DNA of 64,000 nucleotides from Sedimentisphaerales bacterium (GTDB lineage: Bacteria > Planctomycetota > Phycisphaerae > Sedimentisphaerales > SM23-30), in assembly GCA_963663965.2 (NCBI GenBank), contig CAXXFK010000011.1, forward strand, positions 1 to 64,000, in the 5' to 3' direction. Positions 45,762-64,000 of the stretch are shown piece by piece; position 1 is the first letter of the stretch; each line of letters begins with the position of its first letter. The notes below the pieces were generated by a model that saw nothing but the letters and a program-made list of their open reading frames with translations, did no database searches and had not been told where the DNA came from. The translations under genes were made by a program, and so were the position numbers.

Positions 45762-48700
45762 TCACAATCCTTTATTTTCCACCCATAACGTCTCAATCTC
45801 ATCATCACTTAATACGCGACGATATATCCGGACATCATCAATACATCCATTGAAGCCATTTAAGCCATCCAGCGTGTTACCGATTGACAAAGGATATTTG
45901 GTGGCGTAACGACTTAGTGAAATTGCAGAAGCATTAGTTTTATATTCGACCTCCACACCATTAACATACATAGAAATTGTGGCGTCACCTAAACAATCAT
46001 ATGTCATTACAACATGATACCAGACACCGATATCCGGCGTGAATTGAGAGATTGCTTTTGCACCATCATGTCCAGTATCTGCCGAAAGAGTTCCATCAAG
46101 CCCTGAAGTCAGATAAAAGCCCCACATTCTACTCTGATTTATTATCATTCCACTGGCTCTAGTTTCCGGCCGGGACATAACTTTCATCCACAATGATATC
46201 GTAAATATCGATAAATCACGGATATCCCCTCCCATTCCACAAGCCACCTCATCATCGTTGCCATCCAGTTTTAATGCCCCACTGCCACATTTGAATTCAC
46301 CCGGCGCCTGACTGATTACAGATCCATACAACAACTCACAATGGTTACTTCCAACCTTGTCCTGACCATCGGTATCGAAAGTCCAGTGAGCCATTAGGTG
46401 TTCTTGATCCAGTTTAAAAATTCCATGATTCCAGTTCCTGCTCATTATCGCAAAATCTCCCAATTCCAGCCGCCCATTCTGATCGATATCGCCAGATGCA
46501 GTATCCCCTTGTCCCCACGTTCGCGTCCACTCAGCCAGGTCGGTTCCGTCAACGCCCCACAACCCGGAGATATCGCCCTCAATAGGTACCTGCCAGTTTA
46601 AGCGCGGATAATCGTAACCAGGACGAATATTCTTCCAGACTGGTCCAAAGTCATTACTCGATTGCCAGCCCAAAGTTCCCTCTTTCATTTGATTACTCGT
46701 CAAATAATGACCGGTATCGATCAAGCGGGTTCGGCCAGATACTTCCCCATCCCAATAATTCTTGTCCGAACCTATCGAACTGAAGCTCCCACTTAATCCT
46801 CCGACTGTAATGCCTCCCCGAATCGTACCCACCGCGTAAGTCTCATCGATTATCCCGGAAGCATTATAGCCGTACAAACCGCCAACACACTCACTCTCAG
46901 GTCCGGCATAAATGGCGCTATGGGTATAAGACTGCTCTATCGAACCACTATTGAATCCACAAATGCCGCCAATATGATCTCCCCAACCTTGAATATCCCC
47001 CGTATCATAACATCCAATCACCAGCCCCTTATTATGCCCGACAATACCGCCCACCAGTGAGCCACCCGATATCCGGGCCCGTTCCAGACCCAGGTTTTTG
47101 ACGATCCCATGTTCACCCAGTATCCCAATCAATCCCACACGATTAATTGACTCCGCCTCGATAACCAGGTTCCGGATCAATTTGCCATTTCCATCCAATA
47201 CCCCCTGAAAATAATCTTCACTGCCTGTTACCGCCCGGTTAAACGAATACCCCGCCAGATCTATATCACTTTCGACAATAAAATAAGTGCCAGCGGTCCA
47301 GTCACATACCCGTTCACTCAAGCAAATGATATCCTCCTTACTGTCAATCTGAAAGGGCTCCTCCGCTGTCCCGTTCCCCCCATAGGTACGCTCCGGATAA
47401 TTCGTCATGATTGGATCCCCGTCTTTGTCTTCCCAGGCCAGCCGGGGATAATCCATCCCCCCATCGATTATCCAGTTTCCATCCTCCCAGCCGTAATACC
47501 AGGCAGCCTGCTTCATTTCCACTGTGGACCGCCCCCGGCCACCTGAACTGCTATCGATTTCAGCGGCTTCCCGATCCCAGTAACACGCCCGGATACGATC
47601 ATTATTCTCCCCACAGAAACCGCCGGAGCCCGATGCTCCCATCACTTCACCCACACTATAACTCTGCTGGATCAACGCCACATTAGAGCCACACAATCCC
47701 CCCCCAATACCGCTGCTCTCTACCCGCCCACTGCTATAACAGTGGCTGATCTGACTGCCTTTTCCATTACCTCCACACAAACCACCCTCCATTGAGTCAT
47801 CCTCTCCATGACAGATCACTGCCCCTGATGCAAAACTCTGGCGAATAATCCCAACCGGACCATTCGATCCGCACAAGCCACCTGTCGTCGATTTTAAACC
47901 CGTTACGACACCGCTCGCGCTACATCGCTCAATCCTGCCCCCGGCATTACTGCCGCACAAGCCTCCCACTTCATAAGACCCCGTCACGCCGGCAGTAGCC
48001 AGACTGTCCGCAATCGTGCCAAAATTCATTCCACACACACCCCCCGTAATGGCCCGGCCTTCAATACTCCCATGACCGCTACATTGAATAATCGTTCCTT
48101 GAGTGAAATTTTTTCCGCACACCCCGCCACACCAGGTATTAGTCGCCCGAACCATACCGGTTACCTCGCAACGCTGGATTACGCCGGCATTCTGACCACA
48201 CAACCCGCCGACACCATAATCTCCCGAAACAGTCACATCCTTCAATACGACATCTTTTACAACGCCACCCTCTCCAATATAGCCAAATAAACCGATGTAT
48301 GCCTTATCCCCTCCCATGATCGTTAAATTTGACAAAGTGTGCCCGTTCCCATCGAATACCCCGGTAAACTTCTCACCATCAAATTCCAGATCATCCCAAC
48401 TATTTAAATCCCAGCCGATGACCGCAGTATCAAATACCTGACCGTTTAAATCCAGATCCGCCGTCAGAATAAAATGGCTATCATACTGGAGCGGATGATT
48501 TCTCAAACTGACCAGGTCATCCACCGAACTGATCTGAAAAGGATTTTCCTCTGTGCCATCCCCACCTGAATAACCCACCCGGTCAGAATTCTGAAACAAG
48601 ACAAAAATCTCGGTTTTCGTTAGTACTCGCCGGTAAAGCCTTACCTCATCGATACACCCGTCAAAAGCATAATGACCAGACCTATCACCACCAATTGTCA

Positions 48701-49322
48701 ACGGAATTGTTGAGCTTGAATATAAATCTCCTTCGGCTCTGTATGTATTTTTATACTCAAGTTCTTTTCCATTAATATATAAATGAATTTTGCGATCATA
48801 TTCATCATCGTAAATCATTACCAGATGGTACCACTCCCCTGGCATCACTGTAAACTTACTGTTTGCAAGAACTCTTGTTTCTGCATAAATCCTGCAAATC
48901 AATATTTCATCTTGTATCCGAATACGATGAATTTCCCAGTAAGGATAAATTGCAATCAATAGATCATCAGAATTTTCTGCAGCCATCTCGCTTGCCATAA
49001 ACCATAGTGACACAGACCGCGTTGTCAAATCCGCCAGATCACTGCCCATATCGCACACTGCCACATCATCCTCTCCATCCAGTTTCAATGCCCCGCCCCC
49101 TAATCTGAAATCCCCTTCTTCATGAGACACCACCGCCCCCGATTCCAGTGAGGCATGATAACCGCCCGCAATATCCGTTCCATCGACATCGAACGGCCAG
49201 TACGCCACCAGTTGATCATCACTGACCAAATCAGCAGACACAATACGTCCCAGGCAAAAACACACCGAAAAAATACCAGATACGACTGCTAACCACTGAC
49301 ATAGACCGGACTTATACATCAA
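45762..49322 (-). CDS. Secreted LamG-like / GLUG-repeat / dockerin-like protein
   Basis: Signal peptide; two LamG domains (LVAYWPFD...WYHLV...FDGCIDEVRLY); GDGTEENPFQI; many GGLCGxN repeats; GDI...D..D dockerin-like segment. Confidence 0.85.
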   Translation of the reverse strand: MMYKSGLCQWLAVVSGIFSVCFCLGRIVSADLVSDDQLVAYWPFDVDGTDIAGGYHASLESGAVVSHEEGDFRLGGGALKLDGEDDVAVCDMGSDLADLTTRSVSLWFMASEMAAENSDDLLIAIYPYWEIHRIRIQDEILICRIYAETRVLANSKFTVMPGEWYHLVMIYDDEYDRKIHLYINGKELEYKNTYRAEGDLYSSSTIPLTIGGDRSGHYAFDGCIDEVRLYRRVLTKTEIFVLFQNSDRVGYSGGDGTEENPFQISSVDDLVSLRNHPLQYDSHFILTADLDLNGQVFDTAVIGWDLNSWDDLEFDGEKFTGVFDGNGHTLSNLTIMGGDKAYIGLFGYIGEGGVVKDVVLKDVTVSGDYGVGGLCGQNAGVIQRCEVTGMVRATNTWCGGVCGKNFTQGTIIQCSGHGSIEGRAITGGVCGMNFGTIADSLATAGVTGSYEVGGLCGSNAGGRIERCSASGVVTGLKSTTGGLCGSNGPVGIIRQSFASGAVICHGEDDSMEGGLCGGNGKGSQISHCYSSGRVESSGIGGGLCGSNVALIQQSYSVGEVMGASGSGGFCGENNDRIRACYWDREAAEIDSSSGGRGRSTVEMKQAAWYYGWEDGNWIIDGGMDYPRLAWEDKDGDPIMTNYPERTYGGNGTAEEPFQIDSKEDIICLSERVCDWTAGTYFIVESDIDLAGYSFNRAVTGSEDYFQGVLDGNGKLIRNLVIEAESINRVGLIGILGEHGIVKNLGLERARISGGSLVGGIVGHNKGLVIGCYDTGDIQGWGDHIGGICGFNSGSIEQSYTHSAIYAGPESECVGGLYGYNASGIIDETYAVGTIRGGITVGGLSGSFSSIGSDKNYWDGEVSGRTRLIDTGHYLTSNQMKEGTLGWQSSNDFGPVWKNIRPGYDYPRLNWQVPIEGDISGLWGVDGTDLAEWTRTWGQGDTASGDIDQNGRLELGDFAIMSRNWNHGIFKLDQEHLMAHWTFDTDGQDKVGSNHCELLYGSVISQAPGEFKCGSGALKLDGNDDEVACGMGGDIRDLSIFTISLWMKVMSRPETRASGMIINQSRMWGFYLTSGLDGTLSADTGHDGAKAISQFTPDIGVWYHVVMTYDCLGDATISMYVNGVEVEYKTNASAISLSRYATKYPLSIGNTLDGLNGFNGCIDDVRIYRRVLSDDEIETLWVENKGL

Positions 49323-52351: not shown

Positions 52352-54184
52352 TCAAACAAGACCAGACACTTTTTTCAGCGCCGACAATGCATAAATAACC
52401 GGATACAGCGTTTCATAATACCATAGCCGGGCAAAATACAAACCAATGGGAGCCGCCGCGAACGACTCACGCGTATGTTCCATCATCCAGTTTGTCCCCC
52501 TGGCGATAGCGCCCTGAATTTCCCCAATAGCCATTGTACATTCACTGCCACCCTGGCCACACCAGACCGGCAGCCCCACAATACTGGCCAGCGCGTCAAT
52601 TGCCAGCGCGGTCTCTTCAATCGACACTGGCGTTGACCGGCCCGCCCCCCATCCGCCGCTGGCATCCTGTGCATCCAGCAGCCATCGAACCGCGCGTACC
52701 ACCATCTCATCCGGCGCCTCATATTCCGTATCTGTGATATGAGACAAAGCCAGCAACACCTTGGCCGTCCCATAGAGCGGGTTTTGCTGGTGCGCCTCAA
52801 ACTGATTCCCAAACCATAACGGAACCCACGCGCCATCCGCCCGCTGCGTCCGCCCCAGGTACCCCAGCGCCTTCCGGATAGCCCCCTTGATCCTTTGACA
52901 CATATCATCCCCCAGCTCATCCCTCCACAAATGCCAGGCAATCATCGCATGCGCGGTAAGATCCGCGGCGCTGCGATCAAAAGGCAGTTTATTCCACCCC
53001 TTGCAAAAAGTCGGTATCCCCCCATCATTATTCTGAATATCCAGCAGCCATTGCACCGCCATTTGAGCCGCTTCTTTAGCCCGGTTTTCCCGCCGATCCA
53101 GGTGATAAAGCGCGATCAGCGCCCCGGCCGTATCATCCGCGTCAGGCACCGCTCCCGTCGCCGGATTCCACGCCCAGCCCCCCGGCGCGGCATTGGTATA
53201 CGGGTGTATGGTACGATGATGCTGATCCAGCAGCCAGGCTTGCAGCCCGACGCGGTCCGCTTCGGACAACACCCCCTGACTCTCGCCACCCACCGCCAGC
53301 ACATTGATCGCCAGCGTGGTGACCCACGTGGCCAGATTGGTGTCAATCGGCCAGCTGCCATCCTCCCGCGCCGAATCCAGCAGAAAACGAACCCCTTTGC
53401 CCACCACCACACTGTCTCCGTTCCCCGCCGCCACCAGGCTCATCATCACAAAACTGGTCAGCGGAATCGCTTCCAGATACCCGCCGCTGTCCGGCTGGAT
53501 CCTGACCAGTTTGCGGCTGGTCCTGTTTCGCGTGATCTGCCGCAACAACCGGGTAACCGGGTTGACAGGTTTCGCACAATGAAAATGATATTGGCCAATG
53601 GCAATCAAAACCGGCAATGCATAGCTGACAATGGGCAATCGCAAAAATTTATAAAACGCGTGCGGCAACACCGCCAGTTCAAAAGGCAACGGTTGGCGCT
53701 GTTTCCGGCCGATCTGTATCCTTCCGGCCAGTTCACCCATCATCAGGATCGGCGTCGAAAAGGTCCGGTCATTGCCATACCGACCGTTAATCGTCTTTAT
53801 TAATTGCTCCGAATCCAGGCTGCCGGCCTGATCCGTCAGCCATTTTTCCGAATTCCTCACAATGGCCTCATACTCAGGACCATCTCCCGCCAATGTCAAT
53901 GCGGACCAGCACAGCATGGTCGTACTGATATTACTCTCACTCAACGGCGTATCGCCCCAGCCGCCATCCCCATTCACCGTCTCCGCCAGCCATTTCAGCC
54001 CGCCCTCAATCTGCAATTCATACCGGGTTCGGTCAACCATCGACAACGCGAATACCGCCGTTGCCGTCGCCAGCGCGCTGCTCGACAAATACCCCTCCCA
54101 ATACCCCTCATCCGTCCTGGCATCCAGCAGAATCCCTTGCAACCGTTCAATACTTTTTTTAAGTGCAGTTTGATCGAGTTCCAT
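52352..54184 (-). CDS. Squalene-hopene-cyclase-like class II terpene cyclase
   Basis: GYWEG N-terminus, QW-like repeats (DGGWG, EDGSW, QNNDGG, QRADGAW, QDASGGWG), catalytic-type PDADDTA (DxDD); real start MELDQ at 54184. Confidence 0.88.
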   Translation of the reverse strand: MELDQTALKKSIERLQGILLDARTDEGYWEGYLSSSALATATAVFALSMVDRTRYELQIEGGLKWLAETVNGDGGWGDTPLSESNISTTMLCWSALTLAGDGPEYEAIVRNSEKWLTDQAGSLDSEQLIKTINGRYGNDRTFSTPILMMGELAGRIQIGRKQRQPLPFELAVLPHAFYKFLRLPIVSYALPVLIAIGQYHFHCAKPVNPVTRLLRQITRNRTSRKLVRIQPDSGGYLEAIPLTSFVMMSLVAAGNGDSVVVGKGVRFLLDSAREDGSWPIDTNLATWVTTLAINVLAVGGESQGVLSEADRVGLQAWLLDQHHRTIHPYTNAAPGGWAWNPATGAVPDADDTAGALIALYHLDRRENRAKEAAQMAVQWLLDIQNNDGGIPTFCKGWNKLPFDRSAADLTAHAMIAWHLWRDELGDDMCQRIKGAIRKALGYLGRTQRADGAWVPLWFGNQFEAHQQNPLYGTAKVLLALSHITDTEYEAPDEMVVRAVRWLLDAQDASGGWGAGRSTPVSIEETALAIDALASIVGLPVWCGQGGSECTMAIGEIQGAIARGTNWMMEHTRESFAAAPIGLYFARLWYYETLYPVIYALSALKKVSGLV

Positions 54185-54188
54185 AGCG

Positions 54189-55070
54189 CTAACCCAGATG
54201 CCCCAGGGCCAGCAGCCCATAATAGGTGTATTCGCAATCCGCCATCGCGTCCAGGCAATGGCCGCGAAATCCCCCCGTTTCGCTGCGCAACGAGTTGACA
54301 AAACGCCGGCAGGCCCCCTTAACCGATTCGATGGGATACCCACCCACCGACAAGGCATGCAGCGAAGTTGCCGTTGTTAGTAAATCGGGAAACGGCGCCA
54401 GCGGCATGGCCACAAACCCACCCACCTCGCGATATTGCGTAAACAGCCAGTCCAGGTTTTTTTGATCTGCCGGATGCCCCAGGTGGTTCAAGGCAACCAT
54501 CGCCGCTGCCGTGGCGTTGCTGGATGCTACATCGATATTACGGTTATTGGTAAATCCCCCCCCCGGAATGGCCAGACTCTCCAGACACCGCAACACCTCA
54601 TCACTTCCCGGCAACTCGGTTTGCAAATCCTGGTACGCGGCCACACCCAGGAAACAGCCATAAGCGGTGCCATTCTCCTCATGAACTCCATTGGCAAACC
54701 CGCCATCCTGACTGCGAAACGGCTCCATTGCGCCAATGAGTTTCTGCCGCACGCTCGTTTCGATCTGACCCTCCATCAGAGTGGCGTAGCATCGTATCCC
54801 GGCCGTCAGATGCACCAGATCACCCGGACTTTTTTCCATAACTCCATTCACAAATCCAAGAATTGCCTCCCTGGAAAAATCACCGCCCAGTGCGATCAGC
54901 GTTTCCAGACCAAACACCGTATAATAAATATCGCTCTTACCATCGCGCCCTTTAAAACCGCCATCGGTATCGATACTCCCCGCCATAAAACGGACAACGC
55001 CCGGCGCTACCTCCGGCGCCACCGCGCTAGCGTGTTGGATGGCTCTCATCAATTCCGTTCTTATAGTCAT
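54189..55070 (-). CDS. Prenyltransferase/squalene oxidase repeat (PTase beta-like) protein
   Basis: Repeated GGF motifs: DGGFKGR..SDIYYT, DGGFA, PDLLTT, GGFRG...ADCEYTYY; start likely MTIRTE at 55070. Confidence 0.85.
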   Translation of the reverse strand: MTIRTELMRAIQHASAVAPEVAPGVVRFMAGSIDTDGGFKGRDGKSDIYYTVFGLETLIALGGDFSREAILGFVNGVMEKSPGDLVHLTAGIRCYATLMEGQIETSVRQKLIGAMEPFRSQDGGFANGVHEENGTAYGCFLGVAAYQDLQTELPGSDEVLRCLESLAIPGGGFTNNRNIDVASSNATAAAMVALNHLGHPADQKNLDWLFTQYREVGGFVAMPLAPFPDLLTTATSLHALSVGGYPIESVKGACRRFVNSLRSETGGFRGHCLDAMADCEYTYYGLLALGHLG

Positions 55071-56718
55071 CACAACACTCCATGATATCGATCTCATAAA
55101 ACAGTTTGCTCACAATCCGGCGGAGCAGGCTTTTCAGCGGCATATTGTCCAAAAGCTCAATCGCGGAGATCGCCTGTTGTTTATAGCTTTCCAGCAACTG
55201 TAACGCGATGGTTCTGGCTCTCAACCGGGCCCCCATGCCGACGATGGCCTCTTGCTTGCCATCATCCCGGCCGGTATCGCCCCAGAGTGACTGAAGCAAT
55301 TGCTTATCCTCATCCCCGGCCCGATCCCACAGAATCGCCAGAAAAATCGACGGTTGCTCAACAATGCCATGATAAAAATCGGCCTGGGTACAGAAATCGT
55401 TAATGTCATCTTTGATCTGATACGCAATTCCAATCGCGTCGGAATAGGCCTCCAGAATACCGTTGAGCTCCGGATTAAACTCCACCGACAACGCTCCCAG
55501 CTTTAACGCCACCTCAAATGCGGTCGCTGTCTTTTTCTGAAAAATCGCCAGCACCTCGGCCATCGTCAGCGGACCGGGCCGCCTCATCCACTCCAGTTCC
55601 AGCCCCTGCCCCAGACACAACTCCAAATGCCCCTCCGACACCACTTTCAGAATTTCCGCTTTACGATCTTGCGGCAATTCCAGTTCGCCCAGCAAGCGAT
55701 AGCCCAGCCCAATCAGGAAATCGCCAAGATTTAACGCAATGGGTATCCCGAACTCGGCATGCACCGTCTGCTTATCATAGCGTAACAGATCCCCATCTTC
55801 GATATCATCATGCACTAATGAAGCCTTATGAAAGCATTCGACGGCCACCGCCAGCTTTTTCAAATCACCGCTCAATTCGAGATCCGTTTCCTGCGCGACC
55901 GCTTTATGGGTATAAACCGTCAACAATGGCCGCCACCGCTTCCCCTCCCCGCCCAGACTCCGCAGCGCCAGCGTTTCGGTAAAACTATCACCCAATCCCA
56001 GCACCGTCTTCAACGACTCCGGTTCGAACAGCTGATTCACCCGGTCGCGAACCTCCTGCAGGTCAATCCGGCCATGCGCGTCGAAGCTCCGTTCATAAAT
56101 AACATCCAGCACCCAATCCGCATCCACCCTGGTATCGACACAGCCATCAAACAACAAGGGTATCGCCACCCCCGGAATGGCCCCCGCTTCAATATACGGA
56201 AAGGTCTTTTCCAGCACATCCAGACAACTGACCCCGATCACCGCCTCAATCTTCCCGGTCTGGATCAGCGACATGACAATCGGCGAACCCTCCGCCACCA
56301 GCACCATCATCCCCAGGCTTTCGGCCTGTTCCTTGATACTGCCAATCACACAACGCCCGCAAGCCCGACACGCCAGACCGAGATCATCAAATTCCGCCGG
56401 ACAATGTTCACTGTCTCGCAGGCAGTTGGGCAACAACAGCAACCGCTTCTCATGCGGGGTCGCCGCCATGGTCTTCAGCCACAACTGGTTATTGATCAGC
56501 ACCACCAGAAAGTCAAGCGTCTCCCTGCCAATCCCATTCTCACGGATAATCGCCTCCCCATGCGCCTGCAACTGCTCCAGAGACAGCGGGCCGCAAAGCG
56601 CCTTGTCCTGAACATAACTCCTGACCCAACGGACCAATTGATCCCGAGTCTCTTTATCCTGGGGGACAACTCTTTGTTCTGTTTTCTGATCCTTGTTTTT
56701 TATACTTTTATTAGACAT
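55027..56718 (-). CDS. DUF116 (Cys-rich) - trans-polyprenyl diphosphate synthase fusion
   Basis: N-terminal LLLLPNCLR..C..C..CGRC..VAEG..GVSC..GC; C-terminal GKRWRP, FARM HDDIED, GD, GQ, KT, SARM QIKDDIND. Confidence 0.9.
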   Translation of the reverse strand: MSNKSIKNKDQKTEQRVVPQDKETRDQLVRWVRSYVQDKALCGPLSLEQLQAHGEAIIRENGIGRETLDFLVVLINNQLWLKTMAATPHEKRLLLLPNCLRDSEHCPAEFDDLGLACRACGRCVIGSIKEQAESLGMMVLVAEGSPIVMSLIQTGKIEAVIGVSCLDVLEKTFPYIEAGAIPGVAIPLLFDGCVDTRVDADWVLDVIYERSFDAHGRIDLQEVRDRVNQLFEPESLKTVLGLGDSFTETLALRSLGGEGKRWRPLLTVYTHKAVAQETDLELSGDLKKLAVAVECFHKASLVHDDIEDGDLLRYDKQTVHAEFGIPIALNLGDFLIGLGYRLLGELELPQDRKAEILKVVSEGHLELCLGQGLELEWMRRPGPLTMAEVLAIFQKKTATAFEVALKLGALSVEFNPELNGILEAYSDAIGIAYQIKDDINDFCTQADFYHGIVEQPSIFLAILWDRAGDEDKQLLQSLWGDTGRDDGKQEAIVGMGARLRARTIALQLLESYKQQAISAIELLDNMPLKSLLRRIVSKLFYEIDIMECCDDYKNGIDESHPTR

Positions 56719-58258
56719 GGGGCTGTTTTCCCGCTCTGGTCCTGTTTCTGATCTGTTTGTCCAGCTTGTTAAACATGCTTCTCCACGTAAAGATTTCGGT
56801 CTTACCCAACATCCGGATGGCCGCCCGTTTCAACCAGGATACCCCGCCGGCCCGCTGATTATCCCAGAACAGCTTGGGAACCATCTTAAAATTAATTTCA
56901 TAACAGGTACGATACAACTCCAGATGATTGCTTTGCATATCCTCGATGCCAAACGGTTTTTCATCCGCAGAAAGCGGCTCATAAAACACCGGAAAGATCA
57001 CGGCATTTTGCGATCCGAGATATTGGACCAGCTTCAGCGTCCTTTCGATATCATCGGGTGTTTCGTTGGGCATCCCGAGCACCAGGCTGAACACCGAAAA
57101 GAATCCCGTTCGTTTCATACGTTCCGCCGCCTGACGCACAATATCCTCCCAGTCATCCGGGTCATACGGAAAGACCTTACCGGGACATAGCCCCGCCACC
57201 AGCCGGCCATTCGCGCTCTCCACCCCCATATTCACCCAGAGATAATCCGCCCGCTTGTTCCAGGTCAGCAGTCGCCGAATCTCTTTCAGCTGTTCGTCCG
57301 TCAGTTGAACCACACTGGTAATATTCGCGTGATCGATCTGCATAAACGACAACCCCTTAACCTGCCGCATCTGCACCAGAAGATCGCGTAACGGCTCAAA
57401 TTCCGGCTTCAAGGTCCCGGCCCCATACCGGAAGAAATCTTCGCTGCCGCTCACCACCGAAGTCACCCCATTGGCAACATTGGTTTCCAGGTCCGCCAGA
57501 ATAATATCCTGCGACAGATGCTCCATCTTTTTCCCGGCCATCGTGCAAAACCGGCACCCGCGCCCACAACCGCGCGACAGTTCAATAATCCCCAGCAGCG
57601 AACCATGCCTCAGCGGACAGATTTTTTCCGCCGAGGTACTTTTCTCGCTTTGATGTCTGTCCACCAATTTCCCATTTAATATCTCCGTAAAAAGCGCCGG
57701 GCCGCTCTCCTCAAAATACCCCTCAAAAACCACATCGATACAATCCCGGGCCACCGGATCATCGTAACGCATAAATTGCCAGGCGCCCGCGCCCCCGGCC
57801 ACCACGCGAAAATGATACTTCTCCTTGGCCGCCAGAATCACCTCCAGGATCGATCTCGTCCAGTACCGGGTATACAGCTCACCGCTCCAGAATTTATCCG
57901 TCGTGGTATTGCTCATCCCCATTCCCAGCGGATCACTGGAACTGAACCCGACGATTTTCACCCAGGGCCCCAATAGCTCAGGCAGATAGTCCGGCGTGGT
58001 ACACACCACATCCTCTTTTTGCAGGCCGGTATAGTCGATCAGCGCGGATTCCACCCGCCGCAACCCCAGCGGCGCTGTTCTGGCCCGCCCATCACCATCC
58101 ACCGCCACCGGCGGCGCGACAAAATGCCTCATCACCATTTCAGGGACATGCGTCGTCTGCATCGTCGCGAAAATACCTTCGAACAGAATCTTATAATCCG
58201 CGCTTAGCGTCCGGTCTGCCACCAGCACCACAGCGGGTTTCAGCCGGGATTTACTCAC
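56711..58258 (-). CDS. Radical SAM protein with extended N-terminal (B12-binding-like) domain, Grs-like
   Basis: ELSRGCGRGCRFC; N-terminal VVLVADR, APLGLRRVESAL, DPLG, GGAGAWQ; GVES; 4-8 nt overlaps with both neighbours. Confidence 0.85.
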   Translation of the reverse strand: MSKSRLKPAVVLVADRTLSADYKILFEGIFATMQTTHVPEMVMRHFVAPPVAVDGDGRARTAPLGLRRVESALIDYTGLQKEDVVCTTPDYLPELLGPWVKIVGFSSSDPLGMGMSNTTTDKFWSGELYTRYWTRSILEVILAAKEKYHFRVVAGGAGAWQFMRYDDPVARDCIDVVFEGYFEESGPALFTEILNGKLVDRHQSEKSTSAEKICPLRHGSLLGIIELSRGCGRGCRFCTMAGKKMEHLSQDIILADLETNVANGVTSVVSGSEDFFRYGAGTLKPEFEPLRDLLVQMRQVKGLSFMQIDHANITSVVQLTDEQLKEIRRLLTWNKRADYLWVNMGVESANGRLVAGLCPGKVFPYDPDDWEDIVRQAAERMKRTGFFSVFSLVLGMPNETPDDIERTLKLVQYLGSQNAVIFPVFYEPLSADEKPFGIEDMQSNHLELYRTCYEINFKMVPKLFWDNQRAGGVSWLKRAAIRMLGKTEIFTWRSMFNKLDKQIRNRTRAGKQPHV

Positions 58259-59098
58259 TGGGTTTCTCCGATTTTTTGCGTAACTCCATTATTTCACCAG
58301 GATTAAGAGAGGCCAGTACCTCCGGCGGTATCCTGAGTTCTTCCTGGAGTTTTTTCATATCCATCACCGGCGAGCCGGCCGGCCCTCCGGTTGCCTGTTT
58401 CGCATCTTGCGTCCGCCGGATCAGCGCCTCATACGCCGCATTGCCCTGGAGCGTCTGCGGACTCCCACCAGCCTGATCCTGCCCACCCTGGCTGTCAGCA
58501 ATTTCCTCACCACAGATCGCCCCCTCGGAATATTTTGGAAACACAATCGCCTGCTTAGGACAAATCCTCGCGCAGGCCGGGCAATTGGTCTTACAGTGCG
58601 AAGGATTGGCCACCTGGACCTGCTTATCTGCCGTCAGCTCATACACCTGGAACAGGCAGAAATTCATGCATTGCTTACATTGAATACACCTGCCAGTATC
58701 AATCACCGGAAACCACGGCACCCACTCACTCCCCGCTTGCGGCTCTGCGGCTTCATGGGTATCCTCCCCCGGCGCAATCCCCAAAGCCTCAAGGATCTCA
58801 ACAGCGCTCCCCGTACGCATATTGAAAAATTCAACCGATCCGTCTTCCAGCGTTACCCCACCCGCCTCAAACAGACTCCTCACCGCGCGCGGATAACAGG
58901 CCACCACTTTCAAATTCCCTTGCCCGGCCCATAATGCCAGCTTCCCGGATTTCTCCGCCGCCAGCTTACACAGGTCATCAACCACCTCAAATCGATAACC
59001 CGATTGATCCAAAGCCGCAAAAGCTGAGATTTCGTCTCTTGATCAATTATCTTCGAATAGGCGCAATAGCATAAAACAATCAAATCACTGTCGGCCAT
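58251..59098 (-). CDS. Fe-S protein: Cys-rich HdrA-like N-terminus plus 2x[4Fe-4S] ferredoxin; frameshift at 59019-59022
   Basis: CYC...DDLC...ACYPR...NMR, then CIQCKQCMNFC and CKTNCPACARICP. One added T joins ORF 59098 to ORF 59012 (KSQLFAALDQSG). Confidence 0.85.
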
Positions 59099-59970: not shown

Positions 59971-62748
59971 TTAATTCACCGCAAACACTTTCATCACTTC
60001 ATCGCCCAGATGATTAATCACCTTGACCGCGATCCGGCCCGATTGCGGCTTCTGGAAGGGCCGCGACAGATCGCTGCACAGCGACTCCCATGCCTCCCGG
60101 TCGATCTCCGCCTTCAGACTGGTTTTCAGCGCCTTATACGGATCGTTGGCCCCCAGAAAATAGGCATGGCGAACGAAAAAACTCTCCTCGTTATAGTCGG
60201 TATCGATAAACCAGCAGGCAATCCCCTCGGCCCCGTCGCTGCGCACCTCGCCCGTCTGCGGATGGAATACATCCACTCCGTTGATCTTCACCCGGATCGT
60301 ATCGTCCCCGCCATCGATAATCTCGATATCCGGCTCCCCGAATATCACAAACAGGTTGCCCTGCCCGGTATTCTTCAGATCGGCCGCCATGTGCAGATCG
60401 GCGTTCATACGCGCCTTCAACACCGGCAACCGGCCCAACCGGTCAAATTCGCTGGCGCGCGCTTCATAACTGAACGCGCACGCGATCAGCACATCGAACC
60501 CGGCGTCGCCCGCCTCTCGCGCCGCCGCCGCCAGATCGGCCCGCTGCACTGTGCCAAATTCCGGCCCGATCAATATCGCCGCCCGCCGTTCGATCTCCCC
60601 TTCAAAATAACGGCCCTCGGCGCACACATAATGGCCCGGCCACGGCGTCAGGCTGGTAAAATTGATCTTGTCCTGCTTATGCGCCTGCTGCACCCCGGCC
60701 GTCTTCAAATTCTCCAGGATCATCTGGGCAAAGTCCACCAGCTCGCTCTGCCGGCCCGTCACATTCGGATCGATCAGGTTATCCGCTTCATCCACCCCCA
60801 GTGCCCGGTGCGGACTCAGACTCTCCACCGTAAACGGACCCGCCACCCGCACCTTCTTGCGGTCCTCATACGGCTTGTCGTACAGATATTCAAAGTCCGC
60901 CTTCGCCGCGATTGAACCGTCGATCTCCTGCTGACGCGCGATCCGCCCCTGCCACCACTGCCCGTGCAGGTTCTTGACCGCCGCGGGCCACTTCTCATCC
61001 GCCTCCCGCGGTATCTCCCAATCCTGCCAGCGCTTTTTCAATGCCTGATTGATCTGCTCGCGCAGCGGCTCCAGTTTGTCCTGCCACTGCTCCCAGATCA
61101 CATCGATCTCCGCATTGTTCGCAATTGACTTCAGCGTGATGTGCGGCACCCGCTCATACACAAAGCCCTGCCGGATATTGCCGTATACCGGCTGACTGCT
61201 CGCCGCCGTCTGGGTGACCTCCGCTTCCTTCAACTGACCCTCCCGCGAATCGGCCAGCAGATAAAACGGATAACGCGCCCCCATCACCCGCGCCCGCGCC
61301 AACGCCAAAGCCACCCGCGAAGTATCAACTGTGATCCAGCGCCGACCCCACTGCTCCGCGACAGTCGCCGTTGTGCCGCTTCCACAGGTTGGATCCAACA
61401 CCAAGTCGCCGGGATCAGTGGCCATTAATATGCAACGCTGAATGATTCTAGAACTTGTTTGAACAACATATACTTTATCCACCGCACCACCTCCATCCCA
61501 CCAACTATTGGTCAGGGCAGTAACTGGATAATCCTCCCGGTAGTAGATCCAGCGCATCGTCTTTCCAGCAACAATAAGGCGTCCAGCACGGTCCATTCGA
61601 GACATCCCCTCTGCGTTGGGTTTCCAACTCATGCCCGAAACAGGTTTGTAGACATTACCCTCAAATGACCACGGATACATGCAGGTAAGTGTTGAACCTG
61701 AAGATGTCAGCGAAACGGTCATATAGCTCTTTGCGTCTTCTCGCCGTGTCCGCGCTGGAATTTTTCCACTCGCGACCATTTGCTCAATTTCAGATGTAGA
61801 GCGATACGCCTCATCAATTGCGGATTCTGATTTATCCAAAAACAATGGTCTGAATTTCGCTTGTACGCGGGATTTTGCAAACCATAAAACCATATCGAAA
61901 GTACCACTCAAAAATGTCGAGCCCAAGCCGCCTGTTGTTCGATAAACAATTTGGTTAATAAAATTCTCTTCCCCAAACACCTCATCCATCAGCGCCCGCA
62001 CCCGATGGACATTCTCATCCCCAATCTGAACGAATATCGAACCGGAATCAGTCAGCAGATCCCGCGCCACTGTCAATCGGTCACGCAGATAGGTCAGATA
62101 ACTGTGGATGCCATCGCGCCAGGTATCGCGAAAGGCCCGCACCTGTTCCGGCTCGCGGGTGATATGATCGGTCTTGCCATCCTTGACATCGCGGCTGGTG
62201 GTGGACCACTGAAAGTTGCTGTTGAATTTGATGCCGTAGGGTGGATCGAGATAGATGCACTGCACCTTCCCACGCAGCCCTTCGCGCTCGGCCAGACTCG
62301 CCATCACCTGCAAGCTGTCCCCCAGGATCATCCGGTTGGACCAGTTCTGGTCATGCTGATAGAATTCGGTCTTGGCGTTGGTGTCGGGCAGCCCGTTAAA
62401 ATCCTCATACATATCCGCAAACAGCAGCGGCGCGCTGTCTGTCTCTTTGTCCCGCTGTTTCTGGTGGGTCTGGCGGATCAGGTCATCAATCAGTACCTTG
62501 GGATGCACCTTTTCCTGAATGTAAATCGGCGGTACCGGCACCACCAGGTCCGACCAGTCCTGCTCATCCTTGCCCCGCCATACCAGTTGCGGGTCCAGAT
62601 CGGCATTGCGCGGATAGCGCAAAGTGGTCACTTGCTGATCCTGCTGCTTGAGCACCGACTGATATTCGGCAGTAGGGATATTCTTACGCGAATCCTCGCT
62701 ATGCAATAAGGTTTCAACGGTCTTGGTAACTTTTTTCTTTTTTGCCAT
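59971..62748 (-). CDS. mod: Type III restriction-modification methyltransferase (Mod, beta-class amino-MTase)
   Basis: ILGDSL, IYLDPPYG (motif IV), VLDPTCGSGTT (motif I), C-terminal IAVKVIN..G.E. Confidence 0.92.
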   Translation of the reverse strand: MAKKKKVTKTVETLLHSEDSRKNIPTAEYQSVLKQQDQQVTTLRYPRNADLDPQLVWRGKDEQDWSDLVVPVPPIYIQEKVHPKVLIDDLIRQTHQKQRDKETDSAPLLFADMYEDFNGLPDTNAKTEFYQHDQNWSNRMILGDSLQVMASLAEREGLRGKVQCIYLDPPYGIKFNSNFQWSTTSRDVKDGKTDHITREPEQVRAFRDTWRDGIHSYLTYLRDRLTVARDLLTDSGSIFVQIGDENVHRVRALMDEVFGEENFINQIVYRTTGGLGSTFLSGTFDMVLWFAKSRVQAKFRPLFLDKSESAIDEAYRSTSEIEQMVASGKIPARTRREDAKSYMTVSLTSSGSTLTCMYPWSFEGNVYKPVSGMSWKPNAEGMSRMDRAGRLIVAGKTMRWIYYREDYPVTALTNSWWDGGGAVDKVYVVQTSSRIIQRCILMATDPGDLVLDPTCGSGTTATVAEQWGRRWITVDTSRVALALARARVMGARYPFYLLADSREGQLKEAEVTQTAASSQPVYGNIRQGFVYERVPHITLKSIANNAEIDVIWEQWQDKLEPLREQINQALKKRWQDWEIPREADEKWPAAVKNLHGQWWQGRIARQQEIDGSIAAKADFEYLYDKPYEDRKKVRVAGPFTVESLSPHRALGVDEADNLIDPNVTGRQSELVDFAQMILENLKTAGVQQAHKQDKINFTSLTPWPGHYVCAEGRYFEGEIERRAAILIGPEFGTVQRADLAAAAREAGDAGFDVLIACAFSYEARASEFDRLGRLPVLKARMNADLHMAADLKNTGQGNLFVIFGEPDIEIIDGGDDTIRVKINGVDVFHPQTGEVRSDGAEGIACWFIDTDYNEESFFVRHAYFLGANDPYKALKTSLKAEIDREAWESLCSDLSRPFQKPQSGRIAVKVINHLGDEVMKVFAVN

Positions 62749-62751
62749 GGA

Positions 62752-64000
62752 TTAATCCTGTTTGTTTGAAACGGTCCGGGCCGATTCGATCATCTGGTTA
62801 AATTCCGCTTGCACCTTCGCGGCGAAATCGGCTTCGATCCGATAGACTTCCGTCAGTTCGGCAAAGGCCCAACGGCCGTAATTGCCCAGCCGGTTCACCC
62901 CCGGTATCCAATAGGTTTCCATTGTCAGTTTCTTGTCCTTGGCGTCTTCGCCCCGGTAGCCCTTGATCTCCACCACCAGATTCAACGGGTCGTCCGGGCC
63001 GCGTCCGTCATCCACCCGCACAATAAAATCCGGCCGGTACCGGCGGGTATCCGAGCCATATTGATAGGGCACTTCAAAACCCAGGTTGTGATTTTTGACA
63101 TAAGCCAGCACTGCTGGATGTTTCTCCGCCACCCGGCAGAACTCCGCCTCCCAGTCGCCGTCCAGGATCACCCAGTTGATATGACACCGCCGGGAATCGG
63201 TCTGCCAGCGGTCCGTCTTCGAAGTGGTAAAATTCACAAAACACGTGGAACCGGTCGGATTGTAAGGATCGAGGATCGCCTTGATCGATTGGGTCTGTTC
63301 ATGGGCGCGGGTGATGGCCGCGGTAATCCGCTCACAGGCCATGTCCATCAGGGTCTTGTATTTGAGCTGCGCGCGATAAGTGCCCCCGCGGCAATGCAGA
63401 TACTGCTCCACCCATTGGCGGGCGATGTGCTTCAGTTGCCCGAAAAGCTGCAACGGCGGATCAGCCCCCGGCTCGCGCCATTTGTGCATCACCAGATAAG
63501 AAGTCAGTTCATAAACGATCTGCGCGGTGCGGATGGCCCCGGTATGAACCAGATTCAAGTCAACCGGCTCGCCGACAATGCCGGAGTTTTTCGTTTCGGT
63601 CGCTCCCACCATCTCCGGCGTCAGTTCCAGATGCGAATCCGGCGTAAAACTCGCCGCCAGCCGTTCGCGCGGCAGTTCCACCCGGTAGCCCATCACCCTC
63701 GGAAATACGATCTCCAGCGCGTCCCGCTCCGGCCGCATCGCCTTGACCTGGATGAGTCGGGCGGCGGGCGGCTGCGGTATCACCACGACCGGCTTGGCCG
63801 TAAAGTTAAATGGAATCCCCAGCACATCGGCGTATTCCGCCTTGAAGCGGTTATCCTCGTCCAGATCGTACGATAACCGGCGCAGCGCCCGGCCGATCAC
63901 CTGTTCGCACAGCAGTTGCGTCCCGAACGCCCGCACCCCCAGCACATGCGTCACATTGTTCGCGTCCCAGCCCTCGGTCAGCATCGACACCGACACCACG
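62752..64000 (-). CDS. res: Type III restriction endonuclease Res, 5'-truncated by the window edge
   Basis: VSMLTEGWD, EQVIGRALRR (helicase motifs V/VI); YRPDF...VEIKG PD-(D/E)xK nuclease; adjacent to mod. Confidence 0.9.
   Translation of the reverse strand, partial: VVSVSMLTEGWDANNVTHVLGVRAFGTQLLCEQVIGRALRRLSYDLDEDNRFKAEYADVLGIPFNFTAKPVVVIPQPPAARLIQVKAMRPERDALEIVFPRVMGYRVELPRERLAASFTPDSHLELTPEMVGATETKNSGIVGEPVDLNLVHTGAIRTAQIVYELTSYLVMHKWREPGADPPLQLFGQLKHIARQWVEQYLHCRGGTYRAQLKYKTLMDMACERITAAITRAHEQTQSIKAILDPYNPTGSTCFVNFTTSKTDRWQTDSRRCHINWVILDGDWEAEFCRVAEKHPAVLAYVKNHNLGFEVPYQYGSDTRRYRPDFIVRVDDGRGPDDPLNLVVEIKGYRGEDAKDKKLTMETYWIPGVNRLGNYGRWAFAELTEVYRIEADFAAKVQAEFNQMIESARTVSNKQD

Follow-up and report, generated by a model that had tools for sequence, protein, structure and literature searches.

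Organisation of the gene cluster

The window analysed here, a 64,000-nucleotide stretch of contig CAXXFK010000011.1 from a Sedimentisphaerales bacterium, contains five adjacent genes on the minus strand whose earlier described arrangement was confirmed. These encode an Fe-S protein (58251..59098; Pfam Fer4 families), a 515-residue radical SAM enzyme with a CxxxCxxC motif, referred to below as type A (56711..58258; PF04055, with weak matches to B12 radical SAM models of NCBIfam), a fusion of a DUF116 domain with a trans-isoprenyl diphosphate synthase (55027..56718; PF01976 and PF00348), a single (alpha/alpha)6 toroid with the fold of GGTase/FTase-beta (54189..55070; PF00432 and predicted structure) and a 610-residue class II terpenoid cyclase with a DADDT motif (52352..54184; PF13249 and PF13243). 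With gene starts chosen to agree with the N-termini of homologues, the junctions from the Fe-S gene to the cyclase gene are overlaps of 8, 8 and 44 nucleotides followed by a 4-nucleotide gap. The proposal in a preliminary description that these co-oriented genes form one operon is upheld by this layout and by the co-occurrence of the genes in many genomes. A scan for promoter-like sites (4 against 6.8 expected) and terminator-like sites (14 against 7.0) gave nothing usable.

The Fe-S protein consists of a cysteine-containing N-terminal domain and a 2x[4Fe-4S] ferredoxin-like domain, is encoded by two separate genes at some other loci, and we infer that it acts as an electron donor. In the window its gene is split into two reading frames by a one-base frameshift. 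In two public runs of a single sample, which may be the source of the window's own assembly, the contigs of both (depth 2.7-3.9) have an extra C behind position 59014 that restores the frame, and the frameshift is therefore likely to be an assembly slip.

Distribution of the module

A survey looked within 10 kb of the cyclase gene at 80 loci in GTDB genomes; contig ends truncate many of these loci. A prenyl synthase was present at 64 of the 80, DUF116 at 61, the toroid at 59, the Fe-S protein at 46 and the type A radical SAM enzyme at 19. This co-occurrence is far beyond chance, and the module genes are found together in many other genomes, as a check on the preliminary description called for. 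Fe-S homologues were seen at 41 of the 54 loci having at least 7 kb upstream; at one locus (L109) a search of the neighbourhood found no Fe-S gene beside the other module genes. BamB/PQQ-like propellers (near 23/80 loci) and MFS transporters (near 8/80) are not conserved parts. A GcvH-like protein with the carrier lysine was encoded at 21 of 54 loci and a CobW-type GTPase at 16 of 54; neither a GcvH-like gene nor a close CobW homologue of the kind seen in the cluster turned up in the window's own genome.

Among 22 high-quality relatives, ten have the cyclase, the DUF116-prenyl synthase, the toroid and a radical SAM enzyme (type A in nine and the unrelated type B, described below, in one) and the other 12 have none of these. 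In one genus (g5, represented by G054, which is a single contig, G069 and G073) distances of 0.1-4.6 Mb separate the four genes, and yet all are retained. In 40 relatives type A was always accompanied by the module, except in G055, a 70% complete genome with the synthase and toroid and no match to the cyclase. The module travels as an all-or-none set. Because the genomes are related, the counts of carriers overstate their independence, and two pairs are duplicates (L062 and L111; G012 and G059).

The cyclase

Against the model for canonical squalene-hopene cyclase (SHC), TIGR01507, the cyclase scores 107.4 bits, below the cut-off of 431.1. The aspartates of its DxDD motif (D348, D350 and D351) are found in 117/117 aligned rows, the activating histidine H412 in 116/117 and tyrosine Y471 in 112/117. 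In a FastTree phylogeny, which included no SqhC, OSC or epoxy-polyprenyl cyclases and in which a sixth row, L091, was disregarded as a wrongly extracted 79-residue piece, five canonical SHCs are set apart from the cyclase by a long branch with a support of 100. The preliminary description had left nesting within the SHCs as a point to be checked, and in this tree the enzyme does not group with the canonical SHCs.

Judged by published descriptions, the cyclase appears to match the 'SHC-like' clade of unknown function. Locus titles and motifs from the 80 loci place the divergent cyclase, with its catalytic residues intact, in the PVC group, FCB group and Acidobacteriota. Passages of Santana-Molina et al. 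(2020; PMC7306690) report that SHC-like cyclases have a polyprenyl synthase close by and that their precursor may not be squalene, and section 6 of McShea et al. (2025; PMC12324236) describes them as sister to head-to-tail epoxy-polyprenyl cyclases, these closest characterised sisters acting on epoxidised substrates. The DUF116-polyprenyl fusion has also been published (PMC5898192). The word 'undescribed' in the preliminary description is therefore too strong for the cyclase clade, its polyprenyl synthase neighbour, the idea of a non-squalene precursor and the fusion, all of which appear in these passages. It could match the cluster to no characterised pathway, and literature searches, with subscription journals and some supplements outside their scope, found none either.

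The DUF116-prenyl synthase and the toroid protein

The DUF116 domain has seven invariant cysteines and is a probable Fe-S or metal domain. The synthase domain has a first aspartate motif, DDIED, and a full second motif, DDxxD here and D/N-DxxD across the aligned rows (NDxxD in 16/55). Small residues before the first aspartate motif lead to longer products, and here Ala and Ser stand 5 and 4 places before it. The KT motif is present, and G259-K260-x-x-R263 and H297, the usual residues of the IPP site, are invariant. After the first aspartate motif, the RR that aligned PDB synthases have (1wy0, 5jfq, 6kd7 and 3oyr) is replaced by R313-Y314 in 55/55 rows, and the lysine-bearing stretch after the second motif differs from that of canonical elongases. 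Together with NDxxD in part of the family, these changes mean that the enzyme may transfer a chain instead of elongating one. The model (pLDDT 86.8) matched a GGPP synthase with a Z-score of 32.6 in a fold search that reported the C-terminal domain only, and its Atlas fold matches were DUF116 clusters only. The indole prenyltransferase Ord1 also ranked high in the structure comparison (Z 30.8); canonical synthases outscore it by sequence and one does so by fold.

These features raise the alternative of a meroterpenoid, in which the DUF116 enzyme would place a housekeeping prenyl chain on an acceptor other than IPP, as Ord1 and XiaM do on indole (passages of PMC12510300). The radical SAM enzyme, the ferredoxin and, in other lineages, the GcvH-like carrier might produce or activate this acceptor, and the cyclase would then cyclise the tail. 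The invariant RR-to-RY change, the altered region past the second motif, the likeness to Ord1 and the GcvH-like and CobW-type genes at other loci are consistent with such a route, as are two other ordinary trans-prenyl synthases in the genome that could supply the chain. The second motif is nevertheless unlike the DDxxA pseudo-motif of Ord1, the invariant G259-K260-x-x-R263 and H297 speak against the route, as does the better agreement with canonical synthases, and the carrier and CobW genes were not found in the window's own genome. We consider this route rather unlikely.

The toroid protein was modelled with a pLDDT of 96.9, and its best fold matches were GGTase-I beta (1n4p_B; Z 26.1, rmsd 2.8 over 265 aligned residues), FTase beta (Z 24.8) and the monodomain cyclase 8paj (Z 21.4). 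D47-x-YY, D229 and D278-x-EY are invariant, and the protein has neither the CaaX zinc triad nor a DxDD motif. In an in-register HMM alignment to RabGGTase beta, over which a repeat-shifted alignment scored slightly higher, the positions of the Asp-Cys-His zinc triad are occupied by D229, L231 and Y281, each in 55/55 rows. No gene for an alpha subunit was seen in the module. The earlier label 'PTase-beta' is thus apt for the (alpha/alpha)6 fold and misleading as to the zinc triad of the CaaX prenyltransferases, which is absent.

Two unrelated radical SAM enzymes

A search with the type A protein found relatives in 582 representatives at E<=1e-3. The named ones are archaeal B12-binding radical SAM proteins of 25-31% identity over about 450 residues, and all 118 of 118 members of this archaeal family were matched (E 1e-57 to 2e-33), in taxa known to carry grs. 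The family is most likely Grs, an assignment based on this agreement of taxa and on an N-terminal motif taken to be Grs-like. Binding of cobalamin by type A is predicted from the source annotations of its relatives. The structure search returned no close solved structure, and the operon-linked type A copies form one clade (FastTree). The published criterion for GrsA/GrsB is full-length homology to a validated member at E<=1e-20 over at least 400 residues (10.1101/2023.10.20.563219).

Other loci have instead a 396-residue SPASM/twitch-type enzyme, type B, which is unrelated to type A and has additional conserved C-terminal cysteines; a look-up of its relatives by name returned generic SPASM-type names only. 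Tes and Gms belong to this class. Of the 54 loci whose upstream sequence extends for 7 kb or more, 17 have type A, 22 type B and none both, and the two were not found together at any of the 80 loci. Sixteen genomes lacking a radical SAM gene at the locus comprise 14 with type B elsewhere, one with type A adjoining the synthase and one with neither. The radical SAM step is nearly always present, supplied by one or the other of two unrelated enzymes whose chemistry need not be the same. A Grs-like partner, as proposed earlier, therefore holds for this operon and not as a constant, most other lineages having type B.

Squalene, tetraether genes and oxygen

The window's own genome (94.6% complete, 5.4% contamination) has no match to PF00494 (squalene synthase/HpnCD), no second SHC and nothing over cut-off for HpnE, HpnH, squalene epoxidase, heme-copper oxidase or Tes. 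PF00494 is likewise absent from all ten high-quality module carriers (0/10). The check on hpn and squalene synthase genes thus indicates that this is not a hopanoid pathway; it supports the squalene-independent route suggested in the preliminary description, and the suggested independence of oxygen is probably correct as well. Across 50 locus genomes, PF00494 is absent in 24 and present in 26, so that the latter genomes may use squalene, and a separate cyclase above the SHC cut-off is found in 20. The module was also considered as the missing source of squalene for SHC-bearing anaerobes, an idea that gained no support, only one of the 50 genomes (G029) having an SHC-like fragment without PF00494.

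PF00494 is lacking in 17/18 type A locus genomes as against 4/23 with type B. This contrast bears on an earlier suggestion, that radical chemistry joins prenyl chains: the radical SAM enzyme would couple two chains, or form a ring within a single one, and the resulting squalene-like or larger polyene would replace the product of HpnCDE/Sqs, which the cyclase would fold to a hopanoid-like or new skeleton. The probable kinship of type A with Grs, an enzyme that makes C(sp3)-C(sp3) bonds within isoprenoid chains (passages of PMC13459092), and the C-terminal cysteines that type B has in common with the class of Tes and Gms are in keeping with it. However, the contrast tracks lineage, most type B genomes own squalene synthases yet keep the whole module, G093 combines type A with PF00494, and the toroid protein is left unexplained. 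Such joining is possible, without direct support, and we think it very improbable.

Tes was found over cut-off in 5/33 type A genomes. Together with the squalene synthases in half of the locus genomes, this could mean that the genes merely share a lipid-gene neighbourhood, the cyclase acting on squalene or a housekeeping polyprenoid and its neighbours acting separately, for example in Grs-like ring formation in tetraethers; in passages of one study, GrsA-like matches in Planctomycetota are interpreted as enzymes that might form the rings of membrane-spanning lipids (10.1101/2024.06.25.600576). Against this, Tes is absent from the window's genome and from 8/9 high-quality type A relatives, type A was never found apart from the module in the 40 relatives save in G055, and the all-or-none retention persists where the genes are unlinked. 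We give this explanation little credence. Since most type A carriers are without Tes, most would have no tetraether substrate, and caution is called for before ringed tetraether lipids are deduced from GrsA-like matches in Phycisphaerae.

Proposed pathway

On balance we favour a squalene-independent pathway to a non-hopanoid polycyclic lipid, probably an accessory membrane lipid, in which a polyprenyl chain assembled head-to-tail would lose its diphosphate or be capped there, undergo cyclisation by protonation and receive a radical modification, these three steps not necessarily in that order. The cyclase and the prenyl synthase both retain their catalytic motifs. The product of the DUF116-synthase would be a polyprenyl diphosphate built head-to-tail, probably of at least C25 in view of the Ala and Ser before its first aspartate motif. 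The toroid would handle the diphosphate end, either by joining the chain to a polar acceptor or by removing pyrophosphate, in the manner of GroH ahead of the gromomycin cyclase and of YtpB ahead of SqhC. The cyclase would protonate the terminal alkene by its DxDD motif, and protonation of this kind, with the activating SHC histidine and tyrosine retained, would need no epoxide and no O2; the epoxidised substrates of the nearest characterised sister cyclases speak against this scheme. The radical SAM enzyme, fed by the ferredoxin and perhaps by the DUF116 cluster, would form a C-C bond or attach a group, acting either on the chain or on its cyclised product. A complex prediction for cyclase and toroid scored 0.00 and, made without folded controls, carries no weight either way.

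A broader reading, which we advance only tentatively and regard as doubtful, is that the module marks an undiscovered class of O2-independent polycyclic membrane isoprenoids in the PVC group, Acidobacteriota and FCB group, built from a long head-to-tail chain that is capped by a bacterial, zinc-free toroid related to the beta subunit of protein prenyltransferases, in which the radical C-C step was solved twice, by a Grs-derived B12 enzyme in anaerobic Phycisphaerae and by a SPASM-type enzyme elsewhere. If so, orphan sedimentary terpanes would have a source in this skeleton, and many matches reported as 'GrsA' in Planctomycetota would belong here and not to tetraether ring formation. McShea et al. 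regard the substrate of the SHC-like clade as the constraint still lacking on which is older, cyclisation of alkenes or of epoxides; according to Santana-Molina et al., products of the clade could account for unassigned geological fossils. Assays that offer squalene or oxidosqualene to the cyclase by itself would probably not give the answer. Its four partners are named by the all-or-none set, an anaerobic radical step included, and the exchange of type A for type B offers a built-in complementation test.

Comparison with known systems

The cyclase has the fold, DxDD motif and activating His and Tyr of squalene-hopene cyclase. The hpn cluster also includes a radical SAM step (HpnH and HpnP), but the window's genome lacks HpnCD/Sqs, HpnE and HpnH, and many carriers hold a separate true SHC. 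Descriptions of the SHC-like clade agree in the two-domain DxDD cyclase, its occurrence in Planctomycetota, Verrucomicrobiota, Acidobacteriota and Bacteroidota and the nearby polyprenyl synthase, whereas the toroid, Fe-S protein, DUF116, both radical SAM enzymes and the all-or-none pattern go unmentioned in the available passages of PMC7306690 and PMC12324236. The beta subunits of CaaX and Rab prenyltransferases are the closest fold match to the toroid (Z 24-26), which has Asp at the first zinc-ligand position but Leu and Tyr where the Cys and His ligands stand. Type A probably belongs to the same B12-binding radical SAM family as GrsA and GrsB, with 25-31% identity to archaeal members, yet forms a bacterial clade of its own that is linked to a module with a terpene cyclase. 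Gromomycin and darumycin (GroD-GroH-GroF) provide a precedent for the combination of synthase, transferase and cyclase. In these and in sporulenol (HepST-YtpB-SqhC), likened here in pathway logic, a second prenyl enzyme acts on a head-to-tail polyprenyl diphosphate, capping or dephosphorylating it, and cyclisation follows without squalene. Where the gromomycin pathway has Rieske and P450 enzymes, the present module has a radical SAM enzyme and a ferredoxin.

Operon structure and flanking genes

The preliminary description of five co-oriented genes, with overlaps of 8, 8 and 44 nt and a 4-nt gap, was borne out on the minus strand with coordinates as claimed. According to Pfam the genes encode, in order, a 4Fe-4S dicluster protein (59098-58251), a radical SAM protein (58258-56711), a fusion of DUF116 with a polyprenyl synthetase (56718-55027; the synthase), a prenyltransferase toroid (55070-54189) and a two-domain protein of the squalene-hopene cyclase (SHC) family (54184-52352). 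The Fe-S gene is interrupted by a one-base frameshift at 59014. In two runs of one sample, which may be the window's own source, contigs at a depth of 2.7-3.9 have an additional C after this position, so the gene is probably intact and the frameshift probably an indel error of assembly.

The flanks are unrelated: convergent Gfo/Idh/MocA oxidoreductases border the operon at one end, a DNA methylase at the other. The latter, a 925-aa N6/N4 enzyme, and a restriction-like gene upstream of it, of which only 415 aa precede the window edge, look like a type III restriction-modification pair (59971-63999). Elsewhere, at 45762-49322, LamG domains and GLUG repeats are found in a secreted-looking 1186-aa protein.

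Conservation of the module and supply of squalene

In GTDB genomes, cyclase relatives were confirmed in 507 stretches, of which the best 80 were kept; by title these come from Planctomycetota, Verrucomicrobiota, Acidobacteriota, Bacteroidota and a few further groups. Some titles are unreliable (locus L062 bears the label Pirellulales but is identical to a genome from the family of the window). Within 10 kb of the cyclase, these best 80 of 507 loci hold the synthase in 64, DUF116 in 61, the toroid in 59, the Fe-S protein in 46 and the window's type of radical SAM (type A) in 19, counts affected by the many loci that end at contig ends. The Fe-S gene is absent at locus L109. In one Phycisphaerae lineage (L011, L013, L015, L031; 8/80 loci) an MFS transporter gene lies between the synthase and toroid genes.

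Among 40 relatives, 20 carry the synthase, 18 each the cyclase and the toroid, and 16 the window-type radical SAM. In the high-quality set (22 genomes; completeness at least 90%, contamination at most 5%), cyclase, synthase, toroid and a radical SAM occur together in ten genomes and are all absent from 12, two of these being single-contig genomes. In one genus (G054:C1, G069:C1, G073:C1) these four genes are dispersed over the chromosome, at 2.21, 1.84, 1.95 and 0.10 Mb in G054, and all are kept; the synthase open frame is shorter there, about 500 aa. Because of this all-or-none pattern and retention when scattered, the set is a functional, accessory module and not a chance neighbourhood.

The closest named homologues belong to Phycisphaerae/Sedimentisphaerales. 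A search of the genome containing the window (7.24 Mb, completeness 94.6%, contamination 5.4%) found no squalene/phytoene synthase, second cyclase, squalene epoxidase or heme-copper oxidase, and no HpnH, HpnE or tetraether synthase (Tes) above cut-off; it holds one DUF116 copy and two further, ordinary trans-prenyl synthases. For squalene INDEPENDENCE, PF00494 (the squalene/phytoene synthase family) was found in none of the 10 high-quality module carriers and none of the 19 relatives tested; it is present in G093, a non-relative. The supply of squalene from elsewhere, which had been put forward as a possible refutation, does not hold for the window's lineage but may hold for the others: PF00494 is present in 26 and absent from 24 of 50 locus genomes tested from the best 80 loci, and 20 of the 50 have a separate cyclase above the SHC cut-off. 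That squalene is used, as such genomes might allow, or that the neighbours have separate functions, against which the all-or-none pattern argues, we consider improbable.

Cyclase, synthase and toroid

Against the SHC profile the cyclase scores 107 bits (cut-off 431), and in a FastTree phylogeny with five canonical SHCs (a misextracted sixth row ignored; SqhC, OSC and epoxy-polyprenyl cyclases not included) a long branch separates these from the module cyclases. DxDD is kept in all 117 aligned rows, a His aligned with SHC H451 in 116 and a Tyr aligned with SHC Y495 in 112. DxDD with an activating His and Tyr can protonate a plain alkene.

The C-terminal domain of the synthase is modelled with a trans-prenyl synthase fold (Z 32.6, rmsd 2.4, 313 aligned) and keeps both Asp motifs, GKxxR and KT. 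Residues before the first Asp motif set chain length, and by this rule Ala299 and Ser300, found there in 55/55 rows, point to a product longer than C20. Counting against a plain elongase are the change of RR to RY (55/55 rows), the divergent stretch after the second Asp motif and the form NDxxD of that motif in 16/55 rows. Transfer of the chain to a non-IPP acceptor might accommodate these departures, and the indole prenyltransferase Ord1 (PMC12510300) ranks near the top of the fold matches. Ord1 has a DDxxA pseudo-motif that the module synthase lacks, however, and such transfer seems unlikely. DUF116 has seven invariant Cys. Makarova et al. (PMC5898192), who had already remarked on the fusion in Pirellula staleyi, predicted it to be a flavodoxin-like domain for electron transfer.

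The toroid model (pLDDT 96.9) best matches GGTase-I beta (Z 26.1) and FTase beta (Z 24.8), followed by a monodomain cyclase (Z 21.4) and a two-domain cyclase (Z 20.3). When the toroid is aligned in register with RabGGTase beta, Asp, Leu and Tyr stand at the zinc-ligand positions, and it has no DxDD. Four of its acidic residues and three Tyr are invariant, suggesting a different type of catalytic site.

Two types of radical SAM enzyme

The type A family is small (582 representatives at E<=1e-3), and its named relatives are B12-binding radical SAMs of 25-31% identity from Nitrosopelagicus, Acidilobus, Methanopyrus, Thermoplasmata, Desulfurococcaceae and Nitrososphaeria. The copies linked to the operon fall into a single clade within a bacterial-looking branch. 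Other loci carry type B, an unrelated 396-aa SPASM/twitch-type enzyme. Among loci, from the best 80 of 507, whose upstream sequence extends for 7 kb or more, type A occurs in 17/54, type B in 22/54 and both in none (Fisher p 1.4e-5, overstated by kinship). Sixteen genomes lack both types at the locus: in 14 of them B lies elsewhere, one has A beside the synthase and one has neither type. A true A orthologue occurs once among 39 type-B or unassigned genomes, in G093, which is without B. Three Acidobacteria with type-B modules (G008:C9, G018:C38, G040:C17) also encode, away from the module, a Grs-like radical SAM that is only distantly related (27-29%) and seems to belong to a different subfamily.

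On the cyclase tree (FastTree; root not established) type A clusters in one region, with B scattered more widely, which suggests that A displaced B. Type-B loci often include a GcvH-like protein (carrier Lys kept; 21/54) and a CobW-type GTPase (16/54), neither found in the window's genome; loci such as L060:2317-6229 and L108 have the GcvH-like protein, a CobW/HypB-type GTPase and, in many cases, a NifS-like aminotransferase. At the acidobacterial locus L026, type A sits together with GcvH-like and CobW genes, which elsewhere are a mark of type B; this locus is a possible intermediate of the displacement.

Proposed route

From gene content, motifs and folds, on which all reactions are inferred, a five-part route is the reading we favour, with some confidence. 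The synthase would make a long head-to-tail polyprenyl diphosphate, the toroid would cap it or strip PPi, the cyclase would protonate and cyclise the chain, and the radical SAM and Fe-S partners would carry out an obligatory radical step, yielding a non-hopanoid polycyclic lipid by oxygen-free synthesis. Radical joining of prenyl chains, in favour of which the Grs likeness of type A speaks, is an improbable alternative.

Comparison with known systems

Type A is tentatively likened to Grs by its taxon range and by an N-terminal motif of GrsA. Tes is above cut-off in 5/33 type-A genomes, two of the five being one genome. The range of grs reported in the available text of 10.1101/2022.08.15.504015 agrees with the named members. 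A Black Sea study (10.1101/2024.06.25.600576) gave GrsA matches in 94/684 Planctomycetota MAGs, which it took for candidate enzymes of ring formation in tetraether lipids; many of them may be the type A enzyme. The portions available of PMC13459092, which treats Grs, Gms and Mss, added little, and those of 10.1101/2023.10.20.563219, 10.1101/2025.07.29.667474, 10.1101/2025.11.21.689855 and the supplements of PMC11214058, PMC8941075 and PMC8473941 had little bearing on the module.

By analogy of role with gromomycin-type GroH/DarB (PMC12105684 and PMC13625510) and YtpB, the toroid may act on the end of the chain that bears the diphosphate. Earlier publications cover the cyclase clade, the synthase next to it and the DUF116 fusion. 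Searches of the open literature, leaving aside bioRxiv supplements and a PNAS appendix, turned up no study that characterises the pathway or mentions the remaining partners. The module is a real, widespread pathway awaiting characterisation. McShea et al. (2025, PMC12324236) placed the 'SHC-like' cyclases as sister to cyclases of head-to-tail epoxy-polyprenes, and the cyclase of the module, matched by descriptions, agrees in taxa and neighbourhood with the 'SHC-like' group as presented by Santana-Molina et al. (2020, PMC7306690), for which a nearby polyprenyl synthase is described and a non-squalene precursor proposed.
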